A stretch of 56,400 bases of DNA. It comes from a virus. The notes under the pieces were generated by a model. It made no database searches. It had not been told where the DNA came from and saw only the letters and a list, made by a program, of their open reading frames with translations. Every line of letters begins with the position of its first letter. Position 1 is the first letter of the stretch. Shown one piece after another: positions 15,025 to 51,997 of the stretch. The translations under genes were made by a program, and so were the position numbers. Location: the IMG/VR virus record IMGVR_UViG_3300028536_000002, positions 1-56,400 of that record, one strand, 5' to 3'.

Positions 15025-16836
15025 TTAGATGAAGGGAGCGACAGCGGCCTGGGCGAGCGTGGTCGCGCCGTTGGCCAGGATCGGGATCGTCACCAGGCGG
15101 GCGTCGAAGCCGCGCAGCATGGTCAGCCGTGCCCGCTCCAGGAACAGCGCGACGTACTGGTTGGTCTTGAGCAGCGTGCTGTCGTAGACCGCGTTCAGCT
15201 CGATCACGTCGCTATTGGCCTGCACCCACGCACCGGCCGGGTAGATCAGGGCGTTCACGGTGACCGGCCACGCCAGGATCGCTGTGGCCGCGCCGAACCC
15301 GGCGGCGACGCCGGTGAAGGCGTCCTGCCAGTCGTACACGAACTGGACGTTCGCGCCGCGCTCGGCGAAGTAGGACACGATCTGCGCGTCGGTCACCGCG
15401 AGTGCGTTGTCCACGCCGGTGCGCTTGGCCAGATCCGAACGGATCGCGCCCTTGACCCACAGCGGCAGGACGACCTCAACCGGCGCCGTCTCGGACATGC
15501 GGTTCTTGTAGCGCATGTCCGTGATCTGGAGCTCCACCGAGCCGAGCAACATCGTGGACGCAGCGGCATCGGTGGCCGGCGCCGCGATCACCACGGGCGC
15601 GGACCCGGTGGCCATGTCGGCGATCGTCTTGAAGTTCTGGTAGTGCGCGAACGCCTTCAACGCCTTGCGGGTGAAGTCGGTGTACGCCTCGGGGTAGCCC
15701 TTCGCGGTGAGGATGTCACCGGTCAGGTAGATGAAGTCGACGCCCATCCGGTGGTCGGTGAACGCCGGGCATGGGATGTTGACGACCGGCTTGACGGTAC
15801 CGGCGATGTTCTGCGCCTCGGTCTGGCTGCCGATGCCCGAGCCGGCGCCGGAGGCGCCCCACATCGCGGTGAAGTCCGGGCCGAGCGCGTACCGCACGCC
15901 ACCCCGGGTCACCGTGATGCCCGGCAGGTTCAGGATGCCGTCCTCGGAGGTGAAGTCGAGCAGGTCGTACAGCGTCTCGGACGGGGCGCACCAGCCGGCC
16001 GCCGTCAGGTGGTCCTCGCCGGTCTCGGCCAGGAGTCGCTCCTGGCTGACCGCCCAGGCCATCGCCTCGTCGATGTCGGCCGTGTCCGGGCCAGCACTCG
16101 CGCTGGCCACCAGCCGCTCGTCGGTCGTGTCCAGCCGCAGATCGGAGATGCGCTGCTGCGAACGGGGCGCGCCGGTCCGCTTGGGCAGCGAGCTGAAACG
16201 CGCCTCGGCCGCACGGCCGAACGACTCCCAGGTCATCTCCGCGCCGGCCGCAACCCCGGCCACCTCAGCAGCGGCCACCAAGTGCGTGCCGTTGCCCAGC
16301 TCACCGCTGGCCTTGCGCCGCGCCGGGACCGTTGGCTGGCCGGCGCCGCGAGCCGCTGCCGCAACGGACGAGCGCCGGCCAGCACTGGCCACGAGCACCG
16401 GCTCGCCCGCAGGGGCAGCCGCTGCCGGGTCGGTTGCCGTGCCTGTCTGCGCCACGGGCACGCCACCTTCGGGGTCGGTCTCATCGGCGGCCGGGTCGGC
16501 GTCGGGGTCCGCGTCGGCCTCGGGCTCCGGGTCGGGGTCGGTCTGCGCCTTGAGCCGGGCGCGGGTCTCGTCGAGCTGCGCCTTCTGCGCGGTGTCGTCG
16601 GCGACGATCGCGTCCTGGCGGCCCTTCATGCCCTCGATGGCGCCGATGTACCAGTTGGCCTTGTCGACACGCTCCCCCATCGGCCCCTTGGCGTCGTCGG
16701 CGAGCAGGGCGTTCGCTGCGTCGGTCGCCGACTTGATCATCTCGGTCAGCTCGGCGACGGAGGCGTCCTCCGGCGGGGTGTAGCCAGTCCCGAGGTCGGC
16801 CGGTAGTTCGATCTTGCGCGTCTTCGTGGTAGGCAT
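15025..16836 (-). CDS. Major capsid protein with N-terminal scaffold-like extension
   Basis: 603 aa, ATG 16836 with AAGGAG upstream. The first ~270 aa are helical then Asp/Pro/Ala-rich. The C-terminal ~330 aa carry AAGWCAPSETLYDL, IYPAGAWVQ and VYDSTLLKTNQYVALFLE, typical of actinophage major capsid proteins. No separate scaffold gene is present. Confidence 0.75.
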   Translation of the reverse strand: MPTTKTRKIELPADLGTGYTPPEDASVAELTEMIKSATDAANALLADDAKGPMGERVDKANWYIGAIEGMKGRQDAIVADDTAQKAQLDETRARLKAQTDPDPEPEADADPDADPAADETDPEGGVPVAQTGTATDPAAAAPAGEPVLVASAGRRSSVAAAARGAGQPTVPARRKASGELGNGTHLVAAAEVAGVAAGAEMTWESFGRAAEARFSSLPKRTGAPRSQQRISDLRLDTTDERLVASASAGPDTADIDEAMAWAVSQERLLAETGEDHLTAAGWCAPSETLYDLLDFTSEDGILNLPGITVTRGGVRYALGPDFTAMWGASGAGSGIGSQTEAQNIAGTVKPVVNIPCPAFTDHRMGVDFIYLTGDILTAKGYPEAYTDFTRKALKAFAHYQNFKTIADMATGSAPVVIAAPATDAAASTMLLGSVELQITDMRYKNRMSETAPVEVVLPLWVKGAIRSDLAKRTGVDNALAVTDAQIVSYFAERGANVQFVYDWQDAFTGVAAGFGAATAILAWPVTVNALIYPAGAWVQANSDVIELNAVYDSTLLKTNQYVALFLERARLTMLRGFDARLVTIPILANGATTLAQAAVAPFI

Positions 16837-16932: not shown

Positions 16933-17097
16933 TCAGCTCGTGCGCTTCACGATCCGCAGCAGCGTGCCCTTGCCCCCGGCCGCCTTGCGCGCGGTCTCGG
17001 CCTCAGCCTGGGTGGCGAATTCGCGGGCCGCCTTGTTCGGCTCGCGGTACTGCCAGACAGCGACGAAGCCGTCGGCTGTGCCGCCGCAGCAGGCCAT
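16933..17097 (-). CDS. Small protein (54 aa)
   Basis: Below the track's size cut-off. ATG 17097 shares a base with the upstream stop (TGATG). MACCGGTADGFVAVWQYREPNKAAREFATQAEAETARKAAGGKGTLLRIVKRTS; high codon-3 G/C. Confidence 0.5.
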   Translation of the reverse strand: MACCGGTADGFVAVWQYREPNKAAREFATQAEAETARKAAGGKGTLLRIVKRTS

Positions 17098-17342
17098 CAG
17101 GCCAGCCCTCCGGCCGGGGCCGGCACGTCGGTCTCATTGCGGGCGATCGAGGCGTTGGCCCACATGACCGATTCCTCCAGCGCCGTCAGGGCGAGCGACT
17201 TCTCCCGGCTGTCCGGGCAGTGCCGATCGAGCAGCACCGCGAACGCGCGGGCGTGCTCGCGGATGTCCTGGTAGCGGTTCACCTGGTCATCGTGGGGTGG
17301 GTGGTAGGTGAACCGCTTCGCCAGCTCGGGCAGCCCGAGCAT
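17097..17342 (-). CDS. Small helical protein, Acb2-like (candidate cyclic-oligonucleotide sponge)
   Basis: 81 aa. FTYHPP..Q..RYQDIR.......P.SREKSLALTALEESVMWANASIARN matches my recollection of the Acb2/Tad1-hairpin family signature. Tyr13 and Arg28 are spaced like Acb2 Y11/K26. It lies next to the capsid genes. Confidence 0.4.
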   Translation of the reverse strand: MLGLPELAKRFTYHPPHDDQVNRYQDIREHARAFAVLLDRHCPDSREKSLALTALEESVMWANASIARNETDVPAPAGGLA

Positions 17343-20300
17343 CAGCCGGCCGCCGTCAGGGAGTGCAGCCGCAGCCGGGCCTTCGCTCGGCGCAGCGCCA
17401 GCTCGTCGACCGGGCCGTCGATCACGATGCCCTTGCCCCGGTCCATCGCCTCGACCATCGAGGCCACCAGGGTCTCGAAGTCGCCGCGCGCGATGCGCGC
17501 GCCCGAGGGCAGGGCGACGTCGGTGTCGGGCTCGGGCGGGTACACGATGCCGGCCGCGACCAGCGACGTCTGCTCACCGTTCGCGTCGAGCCCGACGATC
17601 GGGGAGATCCGCTTGACCGGGAAGCTGCCCTGGTTGACGGCCAGCGCCGCGACCAGCTTGCGGTTCGGTGAGCGGCCCCGCCAGTCGCCGGAGAGCTGCC
17701 CGGCGGTCATCAGCTCGTCGACCTTCTCCGAGGTGATGCCGTGCGCGAGCTGCCCGGCGACCTGGATGCCGTACTCGTCGTAGTAGGCCCGCACCGGTGC
17801 GGCGATCGAGCTGGTCGAGTCGTAGTGCTCGACCGCGCCCCGGACCCCACCGGAGCCGTAGTGGCCCCCGCCGACGGTGATCTTGCCGACCTGGATCGGG
17901 CCATCCTCGGTGATGACCTCGCCCAGGTGGAACAGCCCGAAATCATCGCCCTCCGGGACGGTGACACACATGCCGGTCTCGGCGAGCTTCGCGACGTGGC
18001 ACGTGTCGAACGCGCCGAGATGGCCGCTGACCTGCCCGGTCTCGCGGTCCACCTGGATGGCCGTCGGCCCGTCGAGGGGCTGCTGGCGGAAGAACTCGGC
18101 CCGGTACGGCTCGCCGTAGCTCGACGCCAACAGGGCGTAGTCCTGGTCGACGTTCTCGTCCGCTGCCTTGATCGAGTCGGGCATGGAGTCACCTTCTCCG
18201 AGGGTTTCGTAGGCGCCGCGCAGCGACGCCTTGGCGGATGCGATCTTGTCCGGCGGGGCATCGACGGCAGACACGCCGTGTCCGCCAGCAGCGGCGTGCA
18301 CCGCGTTGCGGTTCAGGGTGCCGTCGGGCTCGCGGATCGGGAGCTTGTGCAGATCCTTGCTGTTCGGATCCTGCCCCTGCGCCGGGTCCAGGTGGATGAT
18401 GCAGGCCCGCTTCCACTGGTCCGGGTTGTAGTCGGCCTCGGTGAAGTCGCTCCACGGCTTGTCCGAGACGGGCTCGTCGGCGAACTGCGCGGACATCGTG
18501 CCGGCCGGCGCCGGTGGTGTCTCCTCGGTGCCTGGCTTGTTCGTCGGCGTCGAGGGCGGCGGCACCAGCCGGGAGATCGGCAGGGAGATCTTCACCGGGT
18601 TGTTGACGTCGTCATCGGCGTCGTTGTCGCCGTCGGGCAGGACCGTGACGTCGACCGCCTGGCCTTCGGAGTCGATCGCGGTGATGGTGCCCGTGTCGTC
18701 ATCGCCGTCGCCGTCGGTGTCGCCGAGCCCGACCGTGTCGCCCACGGTCACCGTGGAGCCGTCCTGCAAGACGATCGAGGTGCCGTCCTCGGACAGCGTC
18801 GGCCCTTCGGGGGTGGCACCGGCGAACTCGGCGGGCATCGGCATCCCGATGTCGATCACCTCGGTGGGCTGCACCTCCGGCGCTGGGTCGTTCGCGATGC
18901 GGGCGTTGGCGAACGCCTGCACCGACACGATGGTGGCGCCGCAGAACTCCCACTCCACGGCGACCAGGTTGACGTCCTCATCGCCGTCGTACAGGGCCGG
19001 GTCGGTCGGGTTGCCGTCGGCGTCGGCGAACCCCACGGCGGTCGGGACGAGGTCCACGGAGATCATTCCCATGCCGGCGTCGACCTGGGCCATCGCCTGC
19101 TCGGCGTCGAAGTTCAGCATCGGGTCCATGTAGTCCCCGGTGCCCCACAGGACGTCGCCTCGGTCCTCGACGGTCAGGATGCGGCCGATGATGACCGACC
19201 CGTCGTGCTCGTCGTCGGAGGACTTCTGCCACGACAGGGGCAGCGGCAGTGGCCGGATCGTGCCGCCACCGGCCTTGATCATGCGGTGGTCGCTGGAGGG
19301 CATGGACAGCTCGGCGAGCGGCCCGGACCAGGTCTGCCCGACCGGGGTGAGATCCGTCGCCGGTGGGGCGCTGTCGGGGGCCGGCGCGACGACATCGGCA
19401 GGCGGGGCAGTGGGCGTGGTCACGGGTGCCTCCGTAGCGGCGGTCAAGGACTGTTCGGTCAGGTCGATCTGCTCGCCACCCCAGGCCATCACCAGACGGT
19501 CGTAGGTGACGTCTTGCCCGGCGGCGAGCTCGGGTGGCAGCGGTGTCGCGGCGTTGTAGGCCAGCGCGGTATGGGGGATCCAGATCGGGAACGTCGTCGA
19601 GGCCAGCCCGCCGATCGCGTCGGTGATGCCCTGATGGGCGCCGGCCAGCTCCTCGGACTGCACGAGCAGCACGGAGCAGGGCTCACGCTCGGGGTCGCTG
19701 GCGTTGAACACGGCGGTGGCGAACGCCTTCGCCTTGACCGGCCCCTGCCAGGCGGACGCGAGCGCCTCGGTCAGGCTGGCCTTGACGTCGTCGCTGTACT
19801 CGGTGGCGTCCTTGGCGAGGTAGCCCAGCGTGCAGTGCAGCTCCTCCGGCGCCTCACCACCGGGCTGCGCGAGCGCGGCGGCGTCGGTCTGGGACAGCAT
19901 CGCCATGATTGCGACGCCTTTCGGTGCGTCCTGCACGTCATCAGCCACGGGGGCAGTGTCGCCTGGGGCGTCCAGGGCGAAGTCGTCCAGGAAGTAGATC
20001 ACCGGCGCCGGCGCCCCTGAGCCGGCCGCGACGAGCTGGTCCTCCAGCTCGGTCGCCTGCTCGGCGACAGCCGACGGTGCGTCGGAGGGGATGTCGAAGG
20101 TGAGGGTGCAGCGGCAGTTGCACACGTTCGCTGCCGAGCCGTCACCCGGGCCGGAGATGTCCTCGCCCATGACGGTGAAGCTGTCGTTGATGCCGACGGT
20201 CTGCCCGTTCGCTTCGGCGTGCTCGGGGCGCGTCCGGCCGTCCGGGGTGGCGAGCCACGTCTTGGTGGCGGTGACCTGCGCCGAGTCGGCGAGCGCCGAC

Positions 20301-20938
20301 CAGGAGGCCAGCGCGCCCTGGTTGTTCGCCGCGACGGTCTCGGTGCGGGCGATCAGCTCGGCCCGACCTAGCCACGATGGGTACCCATCGCTGAGCATCT
20401 TCTCGACGGCCACCTGCGCGTCGTCCACGTTGGTGCCCTCGCTGGCAGCGAGCCCGTCCAGCGCGGTGCGGAGCTGCGCGGTGATCGCGTCGGGGATGTG
20501 CACCAGGATCTGTCGGCGGTCCTTGATCCATTGCGAGCGCCACGCCTGCACGGCGTTGGCTGTGGTCGGGTCGGCGAGGGCGGCGGCGGTGATCGGGCCG
20601 AGCATCGCCGAGTAGGCGGGCATGATCACCCCGTCGAGGATGGGGTGCCAGCGCTCGGGGTCGGAGATCATCAGCGTGTAGATCCGGTCGGCGTCGCGCT
20701 GGGTGAACGGCGCCTGCTGCGGCACCGGCGCCGCATCGGCGACCAGACGTGAGATCGGCCCACCGTTGATGGGCTGCGCGGCCAGATCATCTCGGAGCAG
20801 CGCGAGGTACTGGCCGATGGCGTCGGTGACCACCGGCTTGAACTTCCGCTCGCCCCGCTCGTAGCGGTCCGACGCTGAGCGGGCGAACGCGGCTTGCCGG
20901 CCGGCGTCCAGGCGCATCGGCCACGTCCTACGCGTCAT
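17342..20938 (-). CDS. MuF-like / 2H-phosphoesterase / prohead-protease fusion protein (1198 aa)
   Basis: Residues 1-285 are MuF/SPP1 gp7-like (RTETVAANNQG..DGRTRPEH..NVCNCRCTL). Residues ~340-495 carry two HxTx motifs (LHCTLGYL, IPHTALAY), indicating a 2H phosphoesterase. Residues ~535-685 are HK97 gp4-like (DDEHDGSVIIGR, MGMISVDL). Residues 735-785 form an Asp-rich linker. Residues ~930-1110 carry GHLGAFDTCHV..LSGDWRGR..LAVNQGSFP, as in actinophage capsid maturation proteases. Confidence 0.75.
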   Translation of the reverse strand: MTRRTWPMRLDAGRQAAFARSASDRYERGERKFKPVVTDAIGQYLALLRDDLAAQPINGGPISRLVADAAPVPQQAPFTQRDADRIYTLMISDPERWHPILDGVIMPAYSAMLGPITAAALADPTTANAVQAWRSQWIKDRRQILVHIPDAITAQLRTALDGLAASEGTNVDDAQVAVEKMLSDGYPSWLGRAELIARTETVAANNQGALASWSALADSAQVTATKTWLATPDGRTRPEHAEANGQTVGINDSFTVMGEDISGPGDGSAANVCNCRCTLTFDIPSDAPSAVAEQATELEDQLVAAGSGAPAPVIYFLDDFALDAPGDTAPVADDVQDAPKGVAIMAMLSQTDAAALAQPGGEAPEELHCTLGYLAKDATEYSDDVKASLTEALASAWQGPVKAKAFATAVFNASDPEREPCSVLLVQSEELAGAHQGITDAIGGLASTTFPIWIPHTALAYNAATPLPPELAAGQDVTYDRLVMAWGGEQIDLTEQSLTAATEAPVTTPTAPPADVVAPAPDSAPPATDLTPVGQTWSGPLAELSMPSSDHRMIKAGGGTIRPLPLPLSWQKSSDDEHDGSVIIGRILTVEDRGDVLWGTGDYMDPMLNFDAEQAMAQVDAGMGMISVDLVPTAVGFADADGNPTDPALYDGDEDVNLVAVEWEFCGATIVSVQAFANARIANDPAPEVQPTEVIDIGMPMPAEFAGATPEGPTLSEDGTSIVLQDGSTVTVGDTVGLGDTDGDGDDDTGTITAIDSEGQAVDVTVLPDGDNDADDDVNNPVKISLPISRLVPPPSTPTNKPGTEETPPAPAGTMSAQFADEPVSDKPWSDFTEADYNPDQWKRACIIHLDPAQGQDPNSKDLHKLPIREPDGTLNRNAVHAAAGGHGVSAVDAPPDKIASAKASLRGAYETLGEGDSMPDSIKAADENVDQDYALLASSYGEPYRAEFFRQQPLDGPTAIQVDRETGQVSGHLGAFDTCHVAKLAETGMCVTVPEGDDFGLFHLGEVITEDGPIQVGKITVGGGHYGSGGVRGAVEHYDSTSSIAAPVRAYYDEYGIQVAGQLAHGITSEKVDELMTAGQLSGDWRGRSPNRKLVAALAVNQGSFPVKRISPIVGLDANGEQTSLVAAGIVYPPEPDTDVALPSGARIARGDFETLVASMVEAMDRGKGIVIDGPVDELALRRAKARLRLHSLTAAG

Positions 20939-21290
20939 CCCAGACCTCCACCGGCGGCAGGGTGCCGAGCACGTCGATCAGCCGGGCCGGACGGTGCGAT
21001 TGGCCCATCATCAGCAGCACTCTCGTGTACTGCTCCAGCAGCGTGGCCCACGCCGTGGTGTCGACCTCCAGGTGGTGCCGCGTCGCGAGCAGCGGGCACA
21101 GCCCGAACATGTCCTTCACGATGTGGTCGATCTTCTCGACCGGCACCGGGTTGTCCTCATAGGCCCGGTGCCGCGAGTGCGGGGAAACAGCTCGGCGCCG
21201 GGCTCGGGCACCGAACGTCGAAGCCCGCTCCAGCGCCTTGAGCACGAGCAGGTCCGAACAGGCCACTAGGACTGGGTCGACGTCGCTCAC
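20928..21290 (-). CDS. Hypothetical protein between portal and MuF fusion
   Basis: 120-aa track ORF with good codon bias; overlaps both neighbours by a few nt. Confidence 0.5.
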   Translation of the reverse strand: MSDVDPVLVACSDLLVLKALERASTFGARARRRAVSPHSRHRAYEDNPVPVEKIDHIVKDMFGLCPLLATRHHLEVDTTAWATLLEQYTRVLLMMGQSHRPARLIDVLGTLPPVEVWDDA

Positions 21291-22864
21291 GGCGCACCGC
21301 TATTCGGTGCGTGGACCTGTCCTTGCGGTGCCACGGCGGGGGGTCGGGCCGGTGGCGCGTTCAACGCCGGGGTCGGGGTCGGTTCACCGCCTGCGGCCGG
21401 GTTCGGCTCGTAGGCGGGCACCGGCGCCCCGAGCCCCGTCGCGGTGATCGGCTGGATCGAGATGCCCGGGTACAGCGCGGCGATCGCGGCGGCGACCTCG
21501 GCCAGCGTCTGCGGGTTGCCTCGCTTGAGCATTTCGGTGAGCAGCATCCGGGCGCGCTCGTCGTTGTCGGCGATGTCCGACGTCGAGAAGCCCAGCACCT
21601 CCATGTAGGTCCGCTCCCGTAGCAGGCCAGCGGTGTACGCCTTCTCGGCGTTGTCGACGGTGATCTGGTTGGGCAGCAGCTTGTTCAGGTCGAAGTAGAT
21701 CGCGAACGGGCGCGGGTTGCGGCGACGTGAACGCAGAGCCGGCGCGAGGTAGTACTTGGTCAGCGCGGCTGCGACCAGCTCCAGCTTCGGCGCGATGTAC
21801 TGCTTGGCGAAGTCCTCAGTGATCGACCACTGCCCCCAGTGGTTGATATCGCCCGAGCCGGTCAGCTTCTCCGGGGGTAGGTCCATGCCGACGGCGAGGC
21901 GCAACACGCAGGCGTCGCGCAGCGGCTGGATCATCTGGTCCAGGTCGCGGCCGAACTCCATGTGCACGATCTTGGAGATCAGGTCGCCCTTGACCGTGGA
22001 CACGAGCGGCACCACGGCGCTCGCCGAGTCGGGGTCGCGGATCGGGGCGATCATGGCCTCGGTGATCAGATCGAGCCAGCCCTGCGCGCCGGCCGACTCG
22101 GACTTGACCTGCGTGTCGTCAGCGGCCGGCCCGGACGTCGGCTTCGGTAGCTGGATCTCTTCGGGGATCCATAGGATGCCGGCTGACGCGAGCCTCGACT
22201 TGACGGTGGCGCTGACCATGTTGGTGAGCGCGGCCAGCTCCCGCAGCACCGGCAGCAGCGAGCGGGTCGCCGCGTCGGCCTCCCAGCGGCGCTTCGGGTG
22301 CGGCTCCCAGATCCGGACCAGCAGCTCGTTCTCTGTGTCGATCTCGCGGGGCAGCCCGTTCATCTGCTCCACCACGATCCGTTCAGCCGACGTGGCGCTG
22401 ACCTCGGTGGTGCCCAGCACCTCCCACGTGGCCTGGTCAAGGTCCGGGTTGTCGGTGGCGAGCACCCACAGGTCGCCAGCGACGGTGAGGTGCTTGCCGA
22501 TCATCTTGAGCGCCTGGGACTGCTCGGCCGGGCCGCCGAACAGGTCGCCCATGATCTCGGCGACGTCGGTGTCCTTTGTGGGCTGGGTGCCGGGGTCGCC
22601 GGTGAGCGGGTCGATGTCGACAGCGATCAGCCTGGCCCGGGACAGCGCCCACGCCATGAGCCGCACCCCGGCGCCGAACTCGGGGCAGTTGTCGTAGTGC
22701 AGCCAGCCTTCCTGCTGCCAGTCGGTGGCGCCCCAGCGGATGTTCGAGAAGCCGGCGGTGACGCGCACGTTGACTGCGCTGGCCACCAGCGACGTCCGCG
22801 ACGGCGCCGGGTCGGTGGCGAGGGCCAGGCCAGTGCCGGCCCGGCGGGAGTACTTCTTACGCAT
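21287..22864 (-). CDS. Portal protein
   Basis: 525 aa, between terminase and MuF. WQQEGWLHYDNCPEFGAGVRLMAWALSRARL..GDLWVLATD is typical of portal N-regions. Confidence 0.75.
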   Translation of the reverse strand: MRKKYSRRAGTGLALATDPAPSRTSLVASAVNVRVTAGFSNIRWGATDWQQEGWLHYDNCPEFGAGVRLMAWALSRARLIAVDIDPLTGDPGTQPTKDTDVAEIMGDLFGGPAEQSQALKMIGKHLTVAGDLWVLATDNPDLDQATWEVLGTTEVSATSAERIVVEQMNGLPREIDTENELLVRIWEPHPKRRWEADAATRSLLPVLRELAALTNMVSATVKSRLASAGILWIPEEIQLPKPTSGPAADDTQVKSESAGAQGWLDLITEAMIAPIRDPDSASAVVPLVSTVKGDLISKIVHMEFGRDLDQMIQPLRDACVLRLAVGMDLPPEKLTGSGDINHWGQWSITEDFAKQYIAPKLELVAAALTKYYLAPALRSRRRNPRPFAIYFDLNKLLPNQITVDNAEKAYTAGLLRERTYMEVLGFSTSDIADNDERARMLLTEMLKRGNPQTLAEVAAAIAALYPGISIQPITATGLGAPVPAYEPNPAAGGEPTPTPALNAPPARPPAVAPQGQVHAPNSGAP

Positions 22865-23601: not shown

Positions 23602-25128
23602 TCACCGCGCGACGCGGGCACCGAACGTCGAAGGAAGCCGCGACGAGGGCTGGCCTGGGCGCCTACCGCGCCGCTCGCGGGCCGCAGCCGACGCGACCTG
23701 GGCGATGCCTGGCCCCTGCTCCCACAGGTAGGTAGCGGCCCACACGAGCGCGTCGAGACGGTCCGGGCTGTCCGGGGTCTCGTCCGGTACCCAGGTGGTG
23801 AGCTGCGCCTCCAGCACCGGGAACGGGCCGACCATGTGCAGCCGCTTCTGCATCGACAGCGCGGCCACCGGCTCGGCGCGGATCTTCTTGCCCTTCGAGG
23901 CGACGACCGGCTGGAGGTTCGGCATCGGCTCGTCGATCTCGCCCTCGGCGCGCATATTCTGCCACGTCGACTCGATGACGGTGGGGATCCACTCACCGCC
24001 TTGGTTCTTCTCATAGACCAGGGCCGTGGCGCCGATCTCGTAGTAGAGGCTGATCGCCGCGCGGGCGGCCTGGGTCGGGGTGCCGTTCAGGGACCGGTCG
24101 TGAGTGACGTAGAACTGCGGGTCTCGGCGGTGCCCGGCGTAGCCCATGCCGATGATGCCGTGCTCGTCGTGGCCGATTCCGGCCCCGCCCGAGGGGTCCA
24201 TCGCCACCACCGAGCGGTGCAGGCCGACGGCGTCCAGCGACACGACGCGGTCGCGGTCGATGACCGACTGCTGCCACAGGGCGCCCTCGACGTCCTCCAG
24301 CAGCTCACCGCCGAGCTCCTGCCGGCCGAGTGTGGTGCCGATCATCGGGGTGACCACGGCGGCCTTGTAGTCAGCGTCCAGGTTGTGCAGGTTGTCCATC
24401 GTCGACCCACGGGTCATGACGACGTCCGGGCGCTGGGTAAGCCCGGCCAGGTGGGGCTGCTCGGCGACCATGTCGTCGGGCATCTTGAGCAGCGGCACCC
24501 GGCGCGGGGTGCAGGTCAGCACCGCCCGTGGGCGGAACGCGTTGTCCCAGTCGCGGCGCGGCGGCAAGCGCATCGCGAAGTTCAGGTTGGAGAACGTGGA
24601 GTCCTTCGCGGTGCCCCGCCCGACGTCAGCCCAGTAGCTTGGCTCGTCGCCCCACGCGAAGTGGAACTGCGGGCCACGGAGCTGCCTCGGCTTCTCCGAG
24701 GAGTAGATCTTGAAATGGGTGCCGTTGGCCATGAACAGCTCACCGAGCGAGCGGTTCCATGCCGACTCGACGCGGCCCCCGCGCAGCTCGGACGGGCGCA
24801 GCACCGACAGCAGCCCCGCTTCACCCTCGACCATCGTGTCGCGGCCATCGCCGAACGTGATCGCCACCAACGCGATCCGCGCCCCCGGGTAGCGCCGCGC
24901 CCACTTGACGATCGACTCAGCACCGGTGCGGGTCTTGCCGAATCCACGTCCGGCCATGATCAGCCAGAACCGCCAGCCCCCGGCCGGCTCCTGCTGCTCG
25001 GGCCGCGACATGAGCCACCACGGCAGCGTCGGCAGCTCGGCCTGCATCTCGATCGGCAGGCGGTGAAGGAACGCGGCCTGCTGTTCCGGTGACTCCTCGG
25101 CGAGCCGCTGGAACAGCGACAGGCTCAT
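23602..25128 (-). CDS. terL: Terminase large subunit
   Basis: 508 aa with Walker A LIMAGRGFGKT, then a nuclease half (AMDPSGGAGIGHDEHGI..). ATGA overlap with TerS. Confidence 0.9.
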   Translation of the reverse strand: MSLSLFQRLAEESPEQQAAFLHRLPIEMQAELPTLPWWLMSRPEQQEPAGGWRFWLIMAGRGFGKTRTGAESIVKWARRYPGARIALVAITFGDGRDTMVEGEAGLLSVLRPSELRGGRVESAWNRSLGELFMANGTHFKIYSSEKPRQLRGPQFHFAWGDEPSYWADVGRGTAKDSTFSNLNFAMRLPPRRDWDNAFRPRAVLTCTPRRVPLLKMPDDMVAEQPHLAGLTQRPDVVMTRGSTMDNLHNLDADYKAAVVTPMIGTTLGRQELGGELLEDVEGALWQQSVIDRDRVVSLDAVGLHRSVVAMDPSGGAGIGHDEHGIIGMGYAGHRRDPQFYVTHDRSLNGTPTQAARAAISLYYEIGATALVYEKNQGGEWIPTVIESTWQNMRAEGEIDEPMPNLQPVVASKGKKIRAEPVAALSMQKRLHMVGPFPVLEAQLTTWVPDETPDSPDRLDALVWAATYLWEQGPGIAQVASAAARERRGRRPGQPSSRLPSTFGARVAR

Positions 25129-38180: not shown

Positions 38181-38247
38181 GGCGTGCTCCCTTGGGTGGG
38201 GTGTCTGGTCTACCCAGACCATATCTGACGAGTCAAGTGCGGCACAA
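38181..38247 (-). promoter_or_regulatory. Promoter/operator/leader cassette
   Basis: In - sense: TTGTGC (38247-38242), 18 nt, TATGGT (38223-38218). The -10 overlaps GTCTGG-N5-CCAGAC (38219-38203). Then ACCCCACCCAAGGGAG and a GTG start. It overlaps the 3' end of the kinase gene. Confidence 0.6.
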
Positions 38248-38793
38248 CAGGCTCACCGGCACGCCACGCTTGCGGAGCAGAGCGAACACGGTCGCGGCCA
38301 TCGGCTCCGCGCCGTGGTGGGACAGATCGAGGGTCGCTGCCCCGAAGCGGGCCGCTAGCCGCGCGGCCTTGCTGCCCCGGCCCTGCACCCACGATTCGTT
38401 CTGGAGGCGCGTACCGGCCTCCTCGGCTCGGTGGCGGCGGCGCCAGGCGACAGTGCCAGGGTTCGCGATGGCGTGGAGCAGGTGCAGCCGATACCCGGCG
38501 GACTCGGCGACGCCGAAGAACTTCGCGTAGGCCAGCCGGTCGCCCTCGGCGAGCACCAGCGGCGCCGGCATCGACGCAATCCAGGCTTCCGCTGACCGGG
38601 CGATCGACATGCCTAGGGTGTCGGTGCCGCCGAACGGCTCCCGCTTGCGGCCGGGCATGACCAGGTCGCCGCGTCGCAGGTGCGGGATCGGCTCGAAGTG
38701 CTCGGCGAAGTCGTCCATTCCGCCGACCATCGCGGTCACGAGCGTGGTTTTGCCGACGCCTGGCGGGCCGATCAGGTAGACCAGGTCAGCCAC
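38233..38793 (-). CDS. P-loop kinase-like protein (candidate 5-hmdU DNA kinase)
   Basis: GTG 38793; Walker A LIGPPGVGKTT at residues 7-17; 186 aa. It is the last gene of the coupled modification cluster. Confidence 0.5.
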   Translation of the reverse strand: MADLVYLIGPPGVGKTTLVTAMVGGMDDFAEHFEPIPHLRRGDLVMPGRKREPFGGTDTLGMSIARSAEAWIASMPAPLVLAEGDRLAYAKFFGVAESAGYRLHLLHAIANPGTVAWRRRHRAEEAGTRLQNESWVQGRGSKAARLAARFGAATLDLSHHGAEPMAATVFALLRKRGVPVSLLCRT

Positions 38794-39655
38794 GGCGGCG
38801 CTCCACTTCCACGAGACGGTCCACGATCTCCGGCGCCCAGCGGACGCCCGAGTGCCACAGCGGCGGCACCGACCGCATGTCCAGCGTGCCGGTGTCGCCC
38901 TCGACGGGGACCGGGCGCCAGCCCTGCGTCAGCTCGCCGACGCCGATGACCGGGACGGACGGCCACAGCTCGCGCCACGCGTCCAGCCACCGGTCGAAGT
39001 GCTTGCCCGCGTCCAGACGGCGTGGCCTGTCCTTGGCCTGCGCGATCAGCGACGAGCCGGCCCACCACCAGCCCGGCCGGGTCGGGATGACGTACGCGTA
39101 CGCGATCTGGAACCGGCCCCGGCGCGAGTAGAACGCTGCCCGATACGGCAGGCCCTGGAGGGCGTCGGGGACGTCGAGCTGCACCTCGGCCGACCAGCCC
39201 CAGCGCAGAGCCCCGCACCGGTCGCCGAAGCCGTGAGCGACCAGCACCCGATGCCCCGGGCGGGCACGGTCGATGCGGCGGGCGACGAAGCGCAGCCGGG
39301 CGGCCTGGACGATCGCCGGGACGTCCACAGCGATGCCCGCGCTGTGGCCGACTCGGTACGGCCCGAGGTCGTCCTGGCGGTAGCGGCCCTCGTGGGGGGG
39401 CTGCTTGTGGGTGTAGACGTAGCTGACCGGGCGGACCATGCCGGCCGGGAACAGCTTGGATTCGTGCCAGTTCCACCACAGGTCGAGGTTGCGCGCACTG
39501 CGCTCATCTCCGGCGGGGTAGACCATGCCGGTGCTGGCCGGCCACGCCCGAACCTCGACGTCGGTGTCGTGCCAGGTGAAGGCGATGCCCTTACGTTCCA
39601 GGGCGAACGCGGTCGCGGCGCCGAACCACCCCATGCCCTCCAGGTGAAGCGTCAC
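38786..39655 (-). CDS. Rossmann-fold flavoprotein-like (DAO/glycine-oxidase-type; candidate flavin-dependent lyase)
   Basis: GTG 39655 in a GTGA overlap. The N-terminal beta-alpha-beta VTLHLEGMGWFGAATAFALERKGIAFTWHD has GxGxxG plus an acidic residue at the end of beta-2. Confidence 0.45.
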   Translation of the reverse strand: MTLHLEGMGWFGAATAFALERKGIAFTWHDTDVEVRAWPASTGMVYPAGDERSARNLDLWWNWHESKLFPAGMVRPVSYVYTHKQPPHEGRYRQDDLGPYRVGHSAGIAVDVPAIVQAARLRFVARRIDRARPGHRVLVAHGFGDRCGALRWGWSAEVQLDVPDALQGLPYRAAFYSRRGRFQIAYAYVIPTRPGWWWAGSSLIAQAKDRPRRLDAGKHFDRWLDAWRELWPSVPVIGVGELTQGWRPVPVEGDTGTLDMRSVPPLWHSGVRWAPEIVDRLVEVERRRG

Positions 39656-40587
39656 GCTGCGCTCACCCCGTCGAGCCACCACAGCAGCCGGCCCGTGTCG
39701 CGGTAGCGGCGGTTCAGCTCCTTGCGCACGCCCGGCCAGCCGGAGATCTCGCCGAGCAGGTGCGGCTCGAAGCTGCGGCCCCGGGCGATCAGCGCCACCC
39801 CGTCCAGGCGCGTCGGGGACTTGCGGAGCTGATCCAGCATCTGATCAACATCGTGGCCAACGTAATAGCGGCCCTCGGTGACGGCGTGCCAGTCGCACAA
39901 GGTGGTCTCGGCCGTCTCCAGGGTGGCGGACAGCCCGGCGTCGTGCAGATGCGCAAGGTGATCCAGGGACAGCCTGTCCAGCTCGGCCAGGGTGTTCCGG
40001 TCGTTGCCGGTCGGCACGTCGGGGTAGAGCACGGCGAGGCCGTGGCGGGGGCCGGTGCTGTTCGCGTGGCCCATGTCCGGCGCGGCCAGCGGGAAGCCGT
40101 TCACGGCGGCCAGCATCTCCCCCGTCTTGAAGGCGGCCCACCGGCCGTTCCCGTGGACCCGGGTCACCGCGCTCGATACAGCGCTCCACCGGTCTTGGCT
40201 GCTGCCGGAGCCATACGCGGCGCCACCGAGCCAGCGGCTGATGCCGCCGTAGGAGTCGATCGTGTCGACCAGGGAGCGCATGTGCGCCCGGAGCTGGCGG
40301 TGATCGCGGTGCGCCCGGCGCTCCGTCCCGGTCGGCAGGACCAGGTCGGCCGGGGGCATCGCGACCTTGCCGTCGGTGGCCTCGAACGCGGCCAGCGCGC
40401 TCCCGAGGTGGTAGTAGGCGACGTGCAGGAACGTCAGCCACAGCCGGGCCTCACCGTCGAGCTCTAGCAGCTCGCCGACCTCACGCAGCACCGGGTAGAC
40501 CGGGTCGACGTCACCGGACTTGAGCTGCCAGTGGTGGAACGTGCAGTAGTCGGCCCACCCGGTGCCCTCGGTCCAGGAGCCGGTCAC
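39652..40587 (-). CDS. 311-aa helical protein, candidate aGPT-Pplase / amino-acid:DNA transferase
   Basis: GTG 40587 in a GTGA overlap. I can name no motif. The call rests on size, helical composition and position between a TET/JBP gene and the flavoprotein/kinase genes. Confidence 0.3.
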   Translation of the reverse strand: MTGSWTEGTGWADYCTFHHWQLKSGDVDPVYPVLREVGELLELDGEARLWLTFLHVAYYHLGSALAAFEATDGKVAMPPADLVLPTGTERRAHRDHRQLRAHMRSLVDTIDSYGGISRWLGGAAYGSGSSQDRWSAVSSAVTRVHGNGRWAAFKTGEMLAAVNGFPLAAPDMGHANSTGPRHGLAVLYPDVPTGNDRNTLAELDRLSLDHLAHLHDAGLSATLETAETTLCDWHAVTEGRYYVGHDVDQMLDQLRKSPTRLDGVALIARGRSFEPHLLGEISGWPGVRKELNRRYRDTGRLLWWLDGVSAA

Positions 40588-40772
40588 ATCAGCTCCAGAT
40601 CTTCGGGGCGGGTCGCCTGCGTGCCACCCCGGCCGTACGCCACGAACACGTAGCGGTCGTTGACCGAGCTGATCACGCCGACCTCCGTGCGGTCGGTCGC
40701 CCCGGCGATGGGCGGGTGGTAGCGCACCTTGTGCCCGATCGCCGCGCGGGCCTGCGCCAGCGTCATCGCCAT
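40584..40772 (-). CDS. Small beta-rich protein (62 aa; SH3/Tudor-like?)
   Basis: ATG 40772 or 40766 (the latter in an ATGA overlap with the TET/JBP stop); KVRYHPPIAG..EVGVISSVNDRYVFVAYG. Confidence 0.45.
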   Translation of the reverse strand: MAMTLAQARAAIGHKVRYHPPIAGATDRTEVGVISSVNDRYVFVAYGRGGTQATRPEDLELM

Positions 40773-41632
40773 GACTTCTCCCCACTCACGACAGCCCGTT
40801 GGTTCTCCTCGCGCTCGGTGCGTTTGGCCTGCCCCTGGGCGAGCTCTGCCGCGAACGTCGCGCAGTCCTTCATGCCTCGCAGGGCGTAGTACACGATCGA
40901 ATAGCGGTAGCCCTTCGGCTGCCCGGCGGCGGCCGGGCGGATCCTGGTCAGCGGCGTCACCCCGTGGACCAGGCGGAAGCCGTTGAAGAACACGACGTAG
41001 CCGGAGCGGCACGACAGGGTGACGTCGTACTCGGGGATGTGCAGCCCCCCACCGGACACGCCGGAGCGGACCACGGGCATCGCCGACCAGGCGTCGAAGT
41101 TCATGCTGTCGCGGTGGTACGGGAGCTGAGCCGTGTGGTTGACGACGCCGGAGGTCCAGTGGCTGTGCGGGGCCATCCGCCAGTCGTCGTCGATCTCGCC
41201 GATCGTCAGGACGTCGCGGTCAGCGATGACCGGGCTGATCGTGCGGAGCATGCCCCCCAGGTGCAGCGACAGCATCGCGAGCACGCCGTGCACCTCGGGC
41301 ATATCCCGCGCGAGCGAGGTGATCCGGCACGAGTCGTGCAGCATCGTCGGCCGGCGCGGCGCCATCCCGAACGTCCGCGACAGCGAGCGGAGCTTGCCGG
41401 CGCGGCCCAGACCGGTGAACCCGTCGATCGCAAGAACAGCCTCGGTCAGGCGCGCCGTCCAGTCCGGTGGCAGCGGCAGGTAGGCGATGACGGGCTCGCC
41501 CAGGTCGGGGTCGGTGATGACCGTCGGGCCGTTGATGACCTGCCCGCGTGTCTCGGGCACCATCTGCCCGACCAGGGCGTCGGCCTGGTCCTTGGACAGG
41601 GCGCGGCGGAACTCCACCTGGGCGTCAGGCAT
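40763..41632 (-). CDS. TET/JBP-family 2-oxoglutarate/Fe(II) dioxygenase
   Basis: 289 aa. LPYHRDS supplies the HxD, GGGLHIPEYD follows, FNGFRLVHGVTPL supplies the distal His, and YRYSIVYYA supplies the RxS. The order and spacing match the TET/JBP double-stranded beta-helix. Confidence 0.7.
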   Translation of the reverse strand: MPDAQVEFRRALSKDQADALVGQMVPETRGQVINGPTVITDPDLGEPVIAYLPLPPDWTARLTEAVLAIDGFTGLGRAGKLRSLSRTFGMAPRRPTMLHDSCRITSLARDMPEVHGVLAMLSLHLGGMLRTISPVIADRDVLTIGEIDDDWRMAPHSHWTSGVVNHTAQLPYHRDSMNFDAWSAMPVVRSGVSGGGLHIPEYDVTLSCRSGYVVFFNGFRLVHGVTPLTRIRPAAAGQPKGYRYSIVYYALRGMKDCATFAAELAQGQAKRTEREENQRAVVSGEKSWR

Positions 41633-48614: not shown

Positions 48615-48836
48615 CTAGCCGGTGAATTGCCACACCCGGCAGGACACGGCAGGGAACGTGGGGTGGGCCTCGAACCGGTCCGTCGGCACGTAGAGCATCG
48701 TCTTGCCGACATGCTCGGTGGAGTGGCGTTCCTGCTCGGCGTCGGCCTCGAAGTAACACCAGCCGTCCCGATAGCCCCCTCGGAAGAGAACTACGGGACG
48801 GCCGATGTCCCAGCCTGGCTTAGCTGTTGTCGCCAT
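48615..48836 (-). CDS. Hypothetical protein (73 aa)
   Basis: Track ORF; overlaps the RecT 3' end by 17 nt. Confidence 0.5.
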   Translation of the reverse strand: MATTAKPGWDIGRPVVLFRGGYRDGWCYFEADAEQERHSTEHVGKTMLYVPTDRFEAHPTFPAVSCRVWQFTG

Positions 48837-50082
48837 CCGGGTCGTCCCCGAGGTCGATCTGCCCGGCGTGCTCGGCCTCGAACCGCTCGGCCTCGTAGGC
48901 GGCGTCGATTGCGGCCTCCTGGTCCGCGTCGGACAGCGCCGTGGCCTCCGGGCCGGCGACAGGTGCTGCGGCCGGCTCGGGCTCGCTCGGGGCCGCCACC
49001 GGCGGGTTCCACGCCAGTGCCGCCTTGAGCTCGTCGGTGGTGGCGAACTCGATCGGGATGGTGGCGCCGTGCTGGATCACCTTGAGCACCGACGCGAGCT
49101 GCCCGCCGTGCTTGTCGATGCCGGCGTCGCGGAGCCCCTTCCACAGGGCCGTCTGCCGGGCGCGAGCGCGGCCCTGCTCATCGTCGGCTGTCCCGGCTGG
49201 CGGGACAGCTTGTGTCGGCTCCTGGGACGCCTCGGCCGCGTCGCTGGCCTGCTCGGCTTCCATCTGCTCGGCCGTCGGCGGTTCGGTGCCGCCGGTGCCG
49301 CCCGGCTCGCCGTCGAACTGGTCCAGCGCGTCCGGGGACAGGTCGACGCGGACCGACTCGTCCGACGCGATGGCCTGCGCGAGCAGCGTCGACTTCGGCA
49401 GGAACTTGAACATCGCCCGCACGCAGGACTTGCGGGCCATCGCGTCGTAGTCCGTCGCCCACGGCGACCGGGCGTTGCGCCCGGACTGCGAGCGGAGGCG
49501 GATCGTCTCGACGTCGTCGCGGCCCATCACGTGGAACACCCGGCCGCCGTTCACCATCCGCGCCACGGCGTAGTAGAGGATCGGCTCGCCCTTCTCGGCG
49601 TCGAACCGGGGCCGGTGCACGAGCTTGTCCTCCAGCCCGTACTCGATCTCGTAGTCCTCACCGGCGAAGATCGTGTGGGCCTTGATCTCGGCGACGAGCT
49701 GGGACCGCTGCGCCAGCTCGATCATGCCCTGATACCCGAGGATCCACTGCGCCTCGGTCACGCCCCGCTGGCTGTTCTTGAACGGCAACACCCACCCGTG
49801 CCCGAGCGCGGGCACGTTGGGTCGGAGCCCGAGCTGCGCGGCGGTCATCAGCGCACCGAACAGGGTCGGCTTGGTGCAGGCGAGCAACTGCGGGACGTTG
49901 CGGACGGCGGTGATCGCGTCGCGGATGAGCTGGGTGGCTTCCATGCCGCGTGGCATCGCAAGCTGGAACTGCTCCTGCATCAGCATCAGCTCGGCCTGGA
50001 GGTTGACGACGCGGTCGACCTCCTTGCCGGGCTTGAGCCCGGCGGCCTCGCGGGCTGCGGTGGACGTGGTCGGTTCGGTCAT
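48820..50082 (-). CDS. recT: RecT-family single-strand annealing protein with long acidic C-terminal extension
   Basis: LGLRPNVPALGHGWVLPFKN..WILGYQGMIELAQRS..IKAHTIFAGEDYE matches the RecT core. ATG 50082 lies behind the leader CCCCACCCCAAGGAGAA. Confidence 0.8.
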   Translation of the reverse strand: MTEPTTSTAAREAAGLKPGKEVDRVVNLQAELMLMQEQFQLAMPRGMEATQLIRDAITAVRNVPQLLACTKPTLFGALMTAAQLGLRPNVPALGHGWVLPFKNSQRGVTEAQWILGYQGMIELAQRSQLVAEIKAHTIFAGEDYEIEYGLEDKLVHRPRFDAEKGEPILYYAVARMVNGGRVFHVMGRDDVETIRLRSQSGRNARSPWATDYDAMARKSCVRAMFKFLPKSTLLAQAIASDESVRVDLSPDALDQFDGEPGGTGGTEPPTAEQMEAEQASDAAEASQEPTQAVPPAGTADDEQGRARARQTALWKGLRDAGIDKHGGQLASVLKVIQHGATIPIEFATTDELKAALAWNPPVAAPSEPEPAAAPVAGPEATALSDADQEAAIDAAYEAERFEAEHAGQIDLGDDPDGDNS

Positions 50083-50390
50083 GGCTTTCTCCTTGGGGTG
50101 GGGATTTGCTTCACGACGAGCTTGCCCGGGATCCGGGTCTCGTCAACGGTCAGCGGCCTGTACGCGGCGGCCGGGTACAGCGTGCGGGGATGGATCAGGA
50201 TGTGGTCGCGGATCAGGATCTCGATCAGGTCCGCCCAGTACGGGCCGAGCGGGTCATGGTGGGTGCGGATGCCGCGCACCCCGGCACCCATCGAGGCGGG
50301 CCGGCTCAGCTTGGGCCGCCAGCCCTGCGGCGACCAGACGATCAGCTCCCGGCGGGCGGCCTCGACGAGCATCTGCATGTCGGGCGTCAT
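50079..50390 (-). CDS. Hypothetical protein (103 aa)
   Basis: Track ORF; overlaps neighbours by 4 nt. Confidence 0.5.
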   Translation of the reverse strand: MTPDMQMLVEAARRELIVWSPQGWRPKLSRPASMGAGVRGIRTHHDPLGPYWADLIEILIRDHILIHPRTLYPAAAYRPLTVDETRIPGKLVVKQIPTPRRKP

Positions 50391-50599
50391 CGGCCGAAGA
50401 TCTTGCGGTGCCGGCGCCGGTAGAACTCCGGCTCACGCTCCCCGGTCTCGACGTCCTTCGTGGTGAGGCGGACCTCGGGCGGGGTCTCGTCATCGGCCAC
50501 GACGTCATCGGTCGGCAACGGCTCGAACGCGCCGGACTTGGGCCGGGCGCGCAGCAGCCGGTCGACCTCTCGTTCGCGGCGAGACAGGTCGCCGGTCAC
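50387..50599 (-). CDS. Hypothetical protein (70 aa)
   Basis: GTG 50599 in a GTGA overlap with the exonuclease stop. Confidence 0.45.
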   Translation of the reverse strand: MTGDLSRREREVDRLLRARPKSGAFEPLPTDDVVADDETPPEVRLTTKDVETGEREPEFYRRRHRKIFGR

Positions 50600-51654: not shown

Positions 51655-51704
51655 TGCGATCTCCCTTGGGTTGGGGGTTCGAGTATCGCGTGCAGCGCAG
51701 ACAA
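51655..51704 (-). promoter_or_regulatory. Degenerate cassette copy
   Basis: In - sense: TTGTCTGC...GATACT (51687-51682), then CCCCCAACCCAAGGGAG and the ATG. Only one half-site is present, and the hexamer spacing is not canonical. Confidence 0.3.
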
Positions 51705-51715
51705 TTTTGCGGGCG

Positions 51716-51997
51716 TTAGCGGCCCCGGGTCGCGGCATAGATGCACAGCGCACCGAAGGCGATGACGCACCAGATGCCGAGCACGCCGAGTGCCCAGTGC
51801 CAGATCGTCCACCCGTGCGGCGGCGTGGGGTCGGCCTCGGCGGGGTCGTAGCGCCATCGGGTGATCACCAGCCTCTCGGTGCAGGGCCACTCGCCCTCGG
51901 GCGCCCAGCCGCACTGCGGCGGCGTGGGCGGCCCGAGGGGTGCGGGTTCGACGCGGCCCCGGTGGACGGGGCAGCCATAGATGGCGTAGAAGCTCAC
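51716..51997 (-). CDS. Small protein with C-terminal TM helix (93 aa)
   Basis: Track ORF; WALGVLGIWCVIAFGALCIYAA. Confidence 0.5.
   Translation of the reverse strand: MSFYAIYGCPVHRGRVEPAPLGPPTPPQCGWAPEGEWPCTERLVITRWRYDPAEADPTPPHGWTIWHWALGVLGIWCVIAFGALCIYAATRGR

Follow-up and report, generated by a model that had tools for sequence, protein, structure and literature searches.

Fusions of 2H phosphoesterase domains with the MuF and portal domains of phage virion proteins were described by Iyer et al. 2017 (PMC5512222), who offered two options for their role, an RNase activity or the breakdown of nucleotides that come from 'nucleotide-activated counterinvader systems'. In a later treatment, 2H-MuF and 2H-portal fusions were considered to be probably packaged and injected against oligonucleotide immune signalling (Iyer et al. 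2022, PMC9503650). Experimental tests of a MuF-fused 2H domain were not found in the searched literature. Phage T4 has a 2H phosphodiesterase (Acb1) as well as an Acb2 sponge. Here we analysed 56,400 nucleotides of viral DNA (positions 1 to 56,400 of the IMG/VR virus record IMGVR_UViG_3300028536_000002, hereafter the window), in which a head-morphogenesis protein of 1198 amino acids (aa) with an internal 2H domain is followed directly by the gene for an 81-aa protein of the Acb2 family. The MuF-2H architecture is not new, as it was described in 2017 and 2022; the new element is the lineage-restricted juxtaposition of the two genes, together with a variable accessory slot that follows the head polyprotein, and nothing else. 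On balance, and with only slightly better than even confidence, we favor the reading that two separately known counter-defence parts, a sponge and an active 2H phosphodiesterase, lie adjacent in a late head-assembly operon. The features that bear on this reading are the following.

17342..20938, minus strand: 1198-aa head-morphogenesis polyprotein, a single open reading frame (ORF) with a G+C fraction at third codon positions of 0.93.
20039..20641, minus strand: MuF (SPP1 gp7-like) minor-head domain, residues ~100-300, recognized by PF04233 and phrog_2468.
19454..19918, minus strand: 2H phosphoesterase domain, residues 341-495, between the MuF and middle domains, recognized by AlphaFold2 (AF2) modelling, Foldseek and profiles.
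19817..19840, minus strand: 2H motif 1, LHCTLGYL, residues 367-374, with a canonical H368-x-T370, aligned with LigT LHITL and Acb1 H44-x-T46.
19556..19579, minus strand: 2H motif 2, IPHTALAY, residues 454-461, with H456-T-A458, aligned with Acb1 PHITLSYN.
18839..19261, minus strand: middle domain, residues ~560-700, matched by phrog_859 (positions 384-542) and phrog_21470 and aligned with YDN12.
17540..18106, minus strand: protease-like domain, residues ~945-1133, matched by phrog_18402 'head maturation protease' (E 5e-56 and 7e-35).
17340..17344, minus strand: TGATG stop/start overlap of the fusion and 81-aa genes, read directly from the sequence and indicating translational coupling.
17097..17342, minus strand: 81-aa Acb2-family protein (PF24729), a candidate cyclic-nucleotide sponge.
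17095..17099, minus strand: TGATG stop/start overlap of the 81-aa and 54-aa genes, also read directly.
16933..17097, minus strand: small gene for a 54-aa DUF7196-like protein (DUF7196, E 0.002).

The 1198-aa protein consists of an N-terminal region, the MuF domain, the 2H domain, a linker, the middle domain, an acidic linker, the protease-like domain and a C-terminal tail. Its membership of the MuF/SPP1 gp7 proteins is indicated by a Pfam match above threshold (PF04233, E 2.7e-13, 51.1 bits against a cut-off of 29.6, residues 166-279) and by the position of the gene after a portal-like ORF and a 120-aa ORF, while the head morphogenesis family phrog_2468 covers residues 99-304. Immediately C-terminal to MuF, in the same polypeptide, comes the 2H domain, which is matched over residues 332-498 by PHROG 2659, named 'RNA ligase' (E 1e-22). 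Compared with the commoner MuF-middle-protease fusion represented by phrog_859, whose alignment with the protein covers MuF, the middle domain and the C-terminal part, the 2H domain has been inserted after MuF and before the middle domain, the latter being common to MuF-protease fusions that contain no 2H domain. The protease-like region has no match in Pfam and a PDB sequence search found none, so the 'protease' assignment derives solely from the names of PHROG families.

A 2H domain in the same internal position is present in the cultured Streptomyces phage YDN12, inside a 1190-aa 'capsid maturation protease and MuF-like fusion protein' that is collinear with the fusion of the window (31% identity over 473 residues, E 1e-34) and shares with it both the MuF-2H-middle-protease order and the location in the head module. 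The first-pass annotation of the window had taken a 2H domain within a MuF-protease fusion to be an undescribed architecture, a claim that YDN12 and the two papers by Iyer et al. contradict. The two loci differ in the second 2H motif, which is HVT in YDN12 and HxA in the clade of the window, and in the Acb2-family gene that the window adds directly downstream. When the 2H domain was searched by tblastn against GenBank phages, 355 records were retrieved, most of them from phages of Mycobacterium (206), Gordonia (124) and Streptomyces (17). In Gordonia phages the domain resides in head-module proteins of 900-1100 aa named 'RNA ligase' or 'head maturation protease', which belong, together with YDN12 gp12, to the same 2H family as the domain of the window (tblastn E 1e-13 to 1e-14). 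Virion mass spectrometry is available for the Gordonia GMA phages, and the 2H-containing protein of GMA2 is named 'putative structural protein'.

The domain is a bona fide member of the 2H superfamily that forms its own phage-specific family. An AF2 model built from an alignment of 36 domain segments reached a mean predicted local distance difference test score (pLDDT) of 92.4 and a predicted template modelling (TM) score of 0.82, and the top 50 Foldseek matches of the model in the PDB were all 2H enzymes. Among them were the D. radiodurans cyclic phosphodiesterase (CPDase; 2.5e-6), the T. thermophilus and E. coli LigT proteins and a plant CPDase, along with Acb1 of phage FBB1 (3.4e-5), a phosphodiesterase of Burkholderia phage BCSR5 and AKAP18; a penguinpox phosphodiesterase of cyclic GMP-AMP (cGAMP), Usb1 and rotavirus VP3 were matched as well. 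In profile comparisons, the family profile matched P. horikoshii LigT PH0099 (2.2e-4) and Acb1 (4e-4) in the PDB, with both HxT motifs aligned onto LigT and the second motif onto Acb1, and hhalign aligned the family with T4 Acb1 at a probability of 92%, placing H368 on H44 and H456 on H113. The two histidines, 88 residues apart, thereby fall on the catalytic histidines of LigT and Acb1, and H368, T370 and H456 are kept in 150 of 150 family representatives. The 2H fold proposed in the first-pass annotation is confirmed by these results; the motif strings LHCTLGYL and IPHTALAY, their coordinates and spacing, and the sequence pattern of the 81-aa ORF were given correctly there. Its description of two HxTx motifs is correct for the first motif (H-C-T), whereas the second, in register with the 150 representatives, reads H456-T457-A458-L459 and has Ala at the Thr/Ser position; at this position 136 of the representatives have Thr, four have Ser and ten have Ala.

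The substitution is not private to the window. HTAL is kept in its close relatives (L084, L085 and L090), and H-x-A marks a subclade of MuF-fused 2H domains that includes L086:3333-3806, L087:10001-10477 and the representatives P0121, P0123-P0127, P0135 and P0138. A link between H-x-A and an Acb2 neighbour was considered and rejected, as L086 and L087 have H-x-A and no Acb2-like gene. Moreover, the domain is under purifying selection: its ratio of nonsynonymous to synonymous substitution rates (dN/dS) is 0.19-0.20 relative to relatives at 93% and 85% identity, as low as that of the protease-like part (0.22-0.26) and of MuF (0.14-0.31). The low dN/dS and the conservation of HTAL within the clade argue that the domain is functional even with the HxA variant.

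The position of the domain within the superfamily is intermediate. Among 36 members of the family, the Pfam model 2_5_RNA_ligase2 was found in 35, Acb1 in 30 (sub-threshold or weak) and LigT_PEase in 18 (weak), and for the domain of the window itself no match to LigT_PEase (PF02834) was obtained at E<=1. It resembles LigT/ThpR and the archaeal 2'-5' RNA ligase-like CPDases in its best Foldseek scores (E 2.5e-6 to 1e-5) and in the PH0099 profile match, but differs from them as a phage-specific domain that is joined to virion proteins and has no link to RNA ligases (PMC5512222). With Acb1 (T4 57B, Erwinia phage FBB1) it shares the 2H fold, a length of ~150 residues and a second motif similar to PH(I/V)TL.YN, but Acb1 is a free enzyme and the domain of the window sits in a 1198-aa structural polyprotein; three residues of the Acb1 tetrad (H44, T46, H113, T115) are represented by H368, T370 and H456, and the equivalent of T115 is A458. 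The comparisons gave no evidence for the C-terminal lid. The label 'Acb1-like' is not established for this domain. An exhaustive search of protein representatives with the 2H domain yielded 821 clusters, 133 of them at E<=1e-10, and most of these form part, at differing positions, of proteins 500-2400 residues long. A word-indexed protein search with the isolated domain as query, unlike the exhaustive search, gave no matches; scans with the 2H alignment found no relatives in genome contigs, and four and six loci in metagenomes and viral sequences, respectively.

The protein encoded immediately downstream of the fusion is firmly placed in the Acb2 family. It matches the Pfam model Acb2_Tad1_hairpin (PF24729) over its entire length (E 4e-24; model positions 1-58 of 58) and scores 85 bits where the cut-off is 27. 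A homolog search retrieved 2125 homologs; the 120 that were listed all carry PF24729, are 55-85% identical, and have invariant F11, H14, P16, Q20, R28, P43, E47, A51, T53, V59, W61-A64, A67 and R68. The AF2 model (pLDDT 86.6) comprises one short helix and two long ones (residues 4-10, 20-41 and 46-69), and its best fold match in the PDB is T4 Vs.4/Acb2 in complex with cGAMP (7uq2), with a probability of 0.99, a TM score of 0.58-0.60 and an E-value (0.28) that is weak, as expected for an 81-aa helical protein. In searches of the PDB with the family profile, Acb2 homolog 43 was matched at E 1.3e-4 and Tad1 chains at 2.7e-3, the only others being two marginal DUF262 matches at E 0.13. The Tad1 alignment is confined to a 22-residue stretch of the second helix, and the fold match to Tad1 is weak (probability 0.12-0.15, TM 0.26-0.29). 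The first-pass assignment to an Acb2/Tad1-hairpin family thus stands with respect to Acb2, and full-length similarity to Tad1 was not found.

A 2025 Sorek/Kranzusch preprint that reports the structure of Acb2_43 compiled 4,204 Acb2 homologs (10.1101/2025.08.24.671296). The FTYHP...WANASIARNE subfamily, to which the 81-aa protein belongs, lies within its sequence table, where the string 'WANASIAR' occurs 140 times. The 81-aa protein is 58% identical to Acb2_4 over the core and 57% identical to Acb2_44 over 68 residues. According to Table S2 of the same preprint, Acb2_4 inhibits the 3'3'-cGAMP CBASS (an antiphage signalling system based on cyclic oligonucleotides) of E. albertii in vivo, Acb2_44 inhibits both CBASS that were tested (3'3'-cyclic UMP-AMP and 3'3'-cGAMP), and neither blocks Thoeris or Pycsar. 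By analogy with these homologs, an anti-CBASS sponge is the best-supported function that can be proposed for the 81-aa protein.

Several candidate ligand-contacting positions were located. R28 aligns with K19 of Acb2_43, and extending this alignment without gaps brings H14 onto H5; K19 and H5 contact the ligand in Acb2_43. Y13 is nearly invariant and R28 invariant, and their spacing of 15 residues equals that of Y11/K26 in PaMx33 Acb2 (residues read from mutagenesis primer sequences), on which I27-R28-E29 can be placed as an ungapped match to V25-K26-E27. The first-pass annotation, which likened the spacing of Tyr13/Arg28 to that of Y11/K26, is correct on the spacing; the hhalign alignment of the sponge family with JBD67 Acb2 was not significant and that with T4 Vs.4 covered the last helix only, which leaves the mapping unproven. 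Viewed against the Acb2 family as a whole (PaMx33/JBD67, T4 Vs.4 and homologs 4, 43 and 44), the protein has in common with it PF24729, a small helical hairpin, the conserved (S/A)(L/I)A.T.(L/I)..VMWA helix and the N-terminal Tyr and basic residue 15 positions apart, but it differs in its distinct invariant N-terminal motif FTYHPP and in the absence of a significant sequence alignment with PaMx33/JBD67. The canonical acb2 of JBD67 (L096:986-1312) also lies inside a head module, two genes after the major head protein gene, so that late head-module placement is common to it and to the gene of the window.

Acb2-like genes occur in many contexts in GenBank phages, including genome ends, positions beside ClpP-like proteases and Paenibacillus phages. 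In Mycobacterium phages of ~75 kb (Toto, Eureka, StellaBean; H97-H116) the Acb2-like gene adjoins a ClpP-like protease gene near 61 kb, and that of StellaBean is annotated 'cyclic nucleotide sequestering protein'; the placement of a sponge beside a protease gene recurs in these phages.

The pairing of the sponge with the 2H domain is lineage-specific. The order fusion, PF24729 gene, DUF7196 gene and capsid gene is kept in relatives whose 2H domains are 98, 93, 85 and 68% identical to that of the window. Where the identity falls to 55, 48 and 46%, fusion and DUF7196 gene are still present, and the slot between them holds unrelated small genes without a Pfam match, coding for 91 aa, 94 and 74 aa, and 105 aa, respectively. 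The slot (L098:4157-4432, L099:5627-6132, L101:5451-5768) includes a 94/105-aa family with the pattern VGR(I/V)VHY...GGTWHWPERVD, and may hold other anti-defence proteins.

An independent adjacency was found in 11 phage records of Gordonia rubripertincta (Schomber, Gray, FlyingTortilla and others), in which the order is portal, Acb2-like gene, free-standing 2H 'RNA ligase' and VIP2-like ADP-ribosyltransferase. The Acb2-like protein of these phages is 65% identical to that of the window, and their 2H domain is 28% identical (E 6e-9). The cluster directly follows the portal gene (L003:5989-8277 in Schomber, L002:6001-8304 in FlyingTortilla), and its products look like candidate ejected or counter-defence proteins. 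Two independent adjacencies among the few lineages in which both genes co-occur are more than random placement would give. They fit the clustering of anti-defence genes, 17.8% of which lie within 1 kb of one another in phages (PMC11724313), but an obligate two-component system is not established by them; our preferred reading of the adjacency is that an accessory gene landed in a variable slot beside another anti-defence module. Of the possible anti-cyclic-nucleotide pair put forward in the first-pass annotation, the adjacent and translationally coupled arrangement was borne out, and Acb2-like plus 2H as a general gene pair was rejected, given its occurrence in only three of 78 loci; the phmmer searches with the head proteins of the window were too insensitive to reveal the context of distant Acb2-like loci.

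In the mechanism that we favor, the 81-aa protein would form a hexamer and sequester cyclic di- or oligonucleotides of the CBASS type, as predicted from homology. It would be made late, in translational coupling with the head polyprotein; the TGATG overlaps at both junctions argue that the fusion, 81-aa and 54-aa genes are co-expressed late, and late expression of a sponge, which is normal in the Acb2 family, would match the late firing of CBASS that prohead proteases are reported to trigger (Hobbs and Kranzusch 2026 preprint). The 2H 'cargo' domain would most likely be active as a phosphodiesterase that needs no metal and cleaves nucleotide second messengers, in analogy with Acb1 or with viral 2',5'-phosphodiesterases. 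It could act in the producing cell or, after being packaged with MuF, upon ejection into the next host, and the known MuF-effector fusions (Iyer 2017; Jamet 2017) make its delivery together with the DNA plausible by analogy. The adjacency to MuF, the invariant histidines, the purifying selection and the anti-defence neighbours together favor an active phosphodiesterase directed against host nucleotide signals. Several observations weigh against this reading. On the side of the gene pair, YDN12 and the 2H fusions at 35-55% identity have no Acb2-like neighbour, unrelated small genes take the slot, and a 2H domain lies within 10 kb in only three of the 78 IMG/VR loci that encode close Acb2-like proteins, one of the three being a close relative of the window. 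On the side of the sponge, ligands differ among Acb2 members, which bind cyclic dinucleotides, cyclic triadenylate or 3' cyclic ADP-ribose (3'cADPR), and Acb2_43, the closest solved structure, binds 3'cADPR and not cGAMP (10.1101/2025.08.24.671296). On the side of the enzyme, the lack of Thr/Ser in motif 2 may reduce activity, judging from the sequence; the cut-off of the Pfam Acb1 model (PF23474), 27 bits, was not reached, the complete protein scoring 12 bits and the domain by itself 16.7; and the domain is about equidistant from LigT/CPDase and Acb1 in both sequence and fold, so that its substrate is not readable from these comparisons.

This equidistance leaves some room, if on the doubtful side, for a 2H domain that acts on RNA and not on immune messengers, in which case the Acb2 neighbour would be functionally unrelated. 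Such an enzyme might heal or trim the 2',3'-cyclic-phosphate ends left by host RNases of the anticodon or HEPN type, or might be a Usb1-like RNase injected with MuF, the latter being one of the two options raised in 2017 (PMC5512222). CPDase/LigT proteins are indeed the best fold and profile matches in the PDB, 2_5_RNA_ligase2 is the Pfam model matched by nearly the whole family, and the annotation in GenBank is 'RNA ligase'. Nevertheless, these versions of the 2H domain were never linked to RNA ligases of the ATP-grasp type (Iyer et al., PMC5512222), no RNA ligase domain was present among 20 non-structural proteins of the window that were scanned, and the presence of an Acb2 sponge next to the domain in two independent lineages, with an ADP-ribosyltransferase toxin in one of them, points to a counter-defence context. 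Loss of catalysis is improbable: according to this alternative, the replacement of Thr by Ala in motif 2 crippled the domain, which then serves for nucleotide binding or as a structural spacer in the polyprotein. A458 does stand where 140 of the 150 representatives have Thr or Ser, and one residue of the Acb1 tetrad is missing, but both histidines and T370 are invariant, and HxA is fixed in an entire subclade with a dN/dS of ~0.2, which fits a working site better than decay. In 2H enzymes the two histidines form the essential acid/base pair, and their retention also counts against a crippled domain.

The other two alternatives concern the arrangement of the genes. In one, which we consider unlikely, the locus is a coordinated module coupled to its own trigger, a 'trigger-coupled antidote' in which sponge and phosphodiesterase would be made in step and at a fixed ratio with the prohead protease, reported to activate the CD-NTases of CBASS; the alarm nucleotide would be destroyed and sequestered as it is made, and a 2H-MuF fragment might also enter the next cell. 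The fusion of the 2H domain to a protease-like domain, the TGATG-coupled sponge gene, the reported late activation of CBASS by prohead proteases (Hobbs and Kranzusch 2026), the inhibition of CBASS by homologs of the subfamily, the retention of the pair down to 68% 2H identity and the adjacent arrangement in a second lineage would all fit. However, 75 of the 78 Acb2-like loci, and many 2H fusions too, lack the respective partner, the 2H gene of the Gordonia lineage is not fused to a protease, and the protease itself is assigned from PHROG names only. It is very improbable, finally, that the 81-aa protein, instead of being a sponge, assists head assembly, for example as a scaffold or decoration helper. 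Its gene is located between those for the protease fusion and the capsid protein, with translational coupling to both neighbours, but homologs are found in many non-structural positions, unrelated genes occupy the slot in relatives, and close homologs expressed alone inhibit CBASS. We thus retain the reading of a sponge adjacent to an active 2H phosphodiesterase.

The window has a G+C content of 70% and carries nearly all of its genes on the minus strand; the phage is a high-GC soil actinophage. The region is a head module of the siphovirus type, with the gene order terminase-like ORF, portal-like ORF, 120-aa ORF, 1198-aa fusion, 81-aa ORF, 54-aa ORF and major capsid gene. The remaining annotated genes of the module are these.

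23602..25128, minus strand: terminase-like ORF, given as context.
21287..22864, minus strand: probable portal gene, a 525-aa ORF that lies between the terminase-like ORF and the MuF fusion and was identified from its position and synteny.
15025..16836, minus strand: major capsid protein (NCBIfam NF033847 MCP_Sipho, E 7e-146).

With the portal-like ORF as phmmer query, syntenic ORFs were retrieved in L004, L051 and L052, and its position is the same as that of the YDN12 portal. A megablast comparison of the locus with phage records gave no matches, so that no GenBank phage record is close at the DNA level; the identical 81-aa protein was found on seven metagenomic contigs. A DUF7196 gene of 51-61 aa is a conserved small ORF directly before the major capsid gene throughout this phage group, with positional counterparts at L097:4578-4763, L098:4509-4676 and L099:6132-6287 (E down to 5.7e-9). 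The DUF7196-like protein of the window starts with MACCGG; a BLASTP relationship of this 54-aa protein to YDN12 gp13 was not significant, and its link to DUF7196 was made via Pfam matches in closer relatives.

Elsewhere in the window, a probable DNA hypermodification cassette (38233-41632, minus strand) encodes a P-loop nucleotide kinase 3 (PF18751, E 4e-25) and an amino acid:DNA transferase (PF18724, E 1e-22), along with a weak match, below threshold, to Tet/JBP-like 2-oxoglutarate-Fe dioxygenases (E 1.6e-4). The cassette points to base modification of the phage DNA as well, which would be a second strategy, directed against restriction. A recombination pair (48820-51753, minus strand) comprises RecT (PF03837, E 2e-41) and a YqaJ-like exonuclease (PF09588, E 4e-14).

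The locus and its cultured relatives, YDN12 and the Gordonia phages of the Schomber type, are tractable cases for the predicted injected MuF-2H counter-measures. The occurrence of the 2H domain beside a sponge of a validated anti-CBASS subfamily in two lineages provides guilt-by-association evidence for a role in anti-signalling over the 'RNA ligase' annotation, a name currently attached to hundreds of GenBank records, and the slot downstream of the head polyprotein is a possible hunting ground for new anti-defence proteins.

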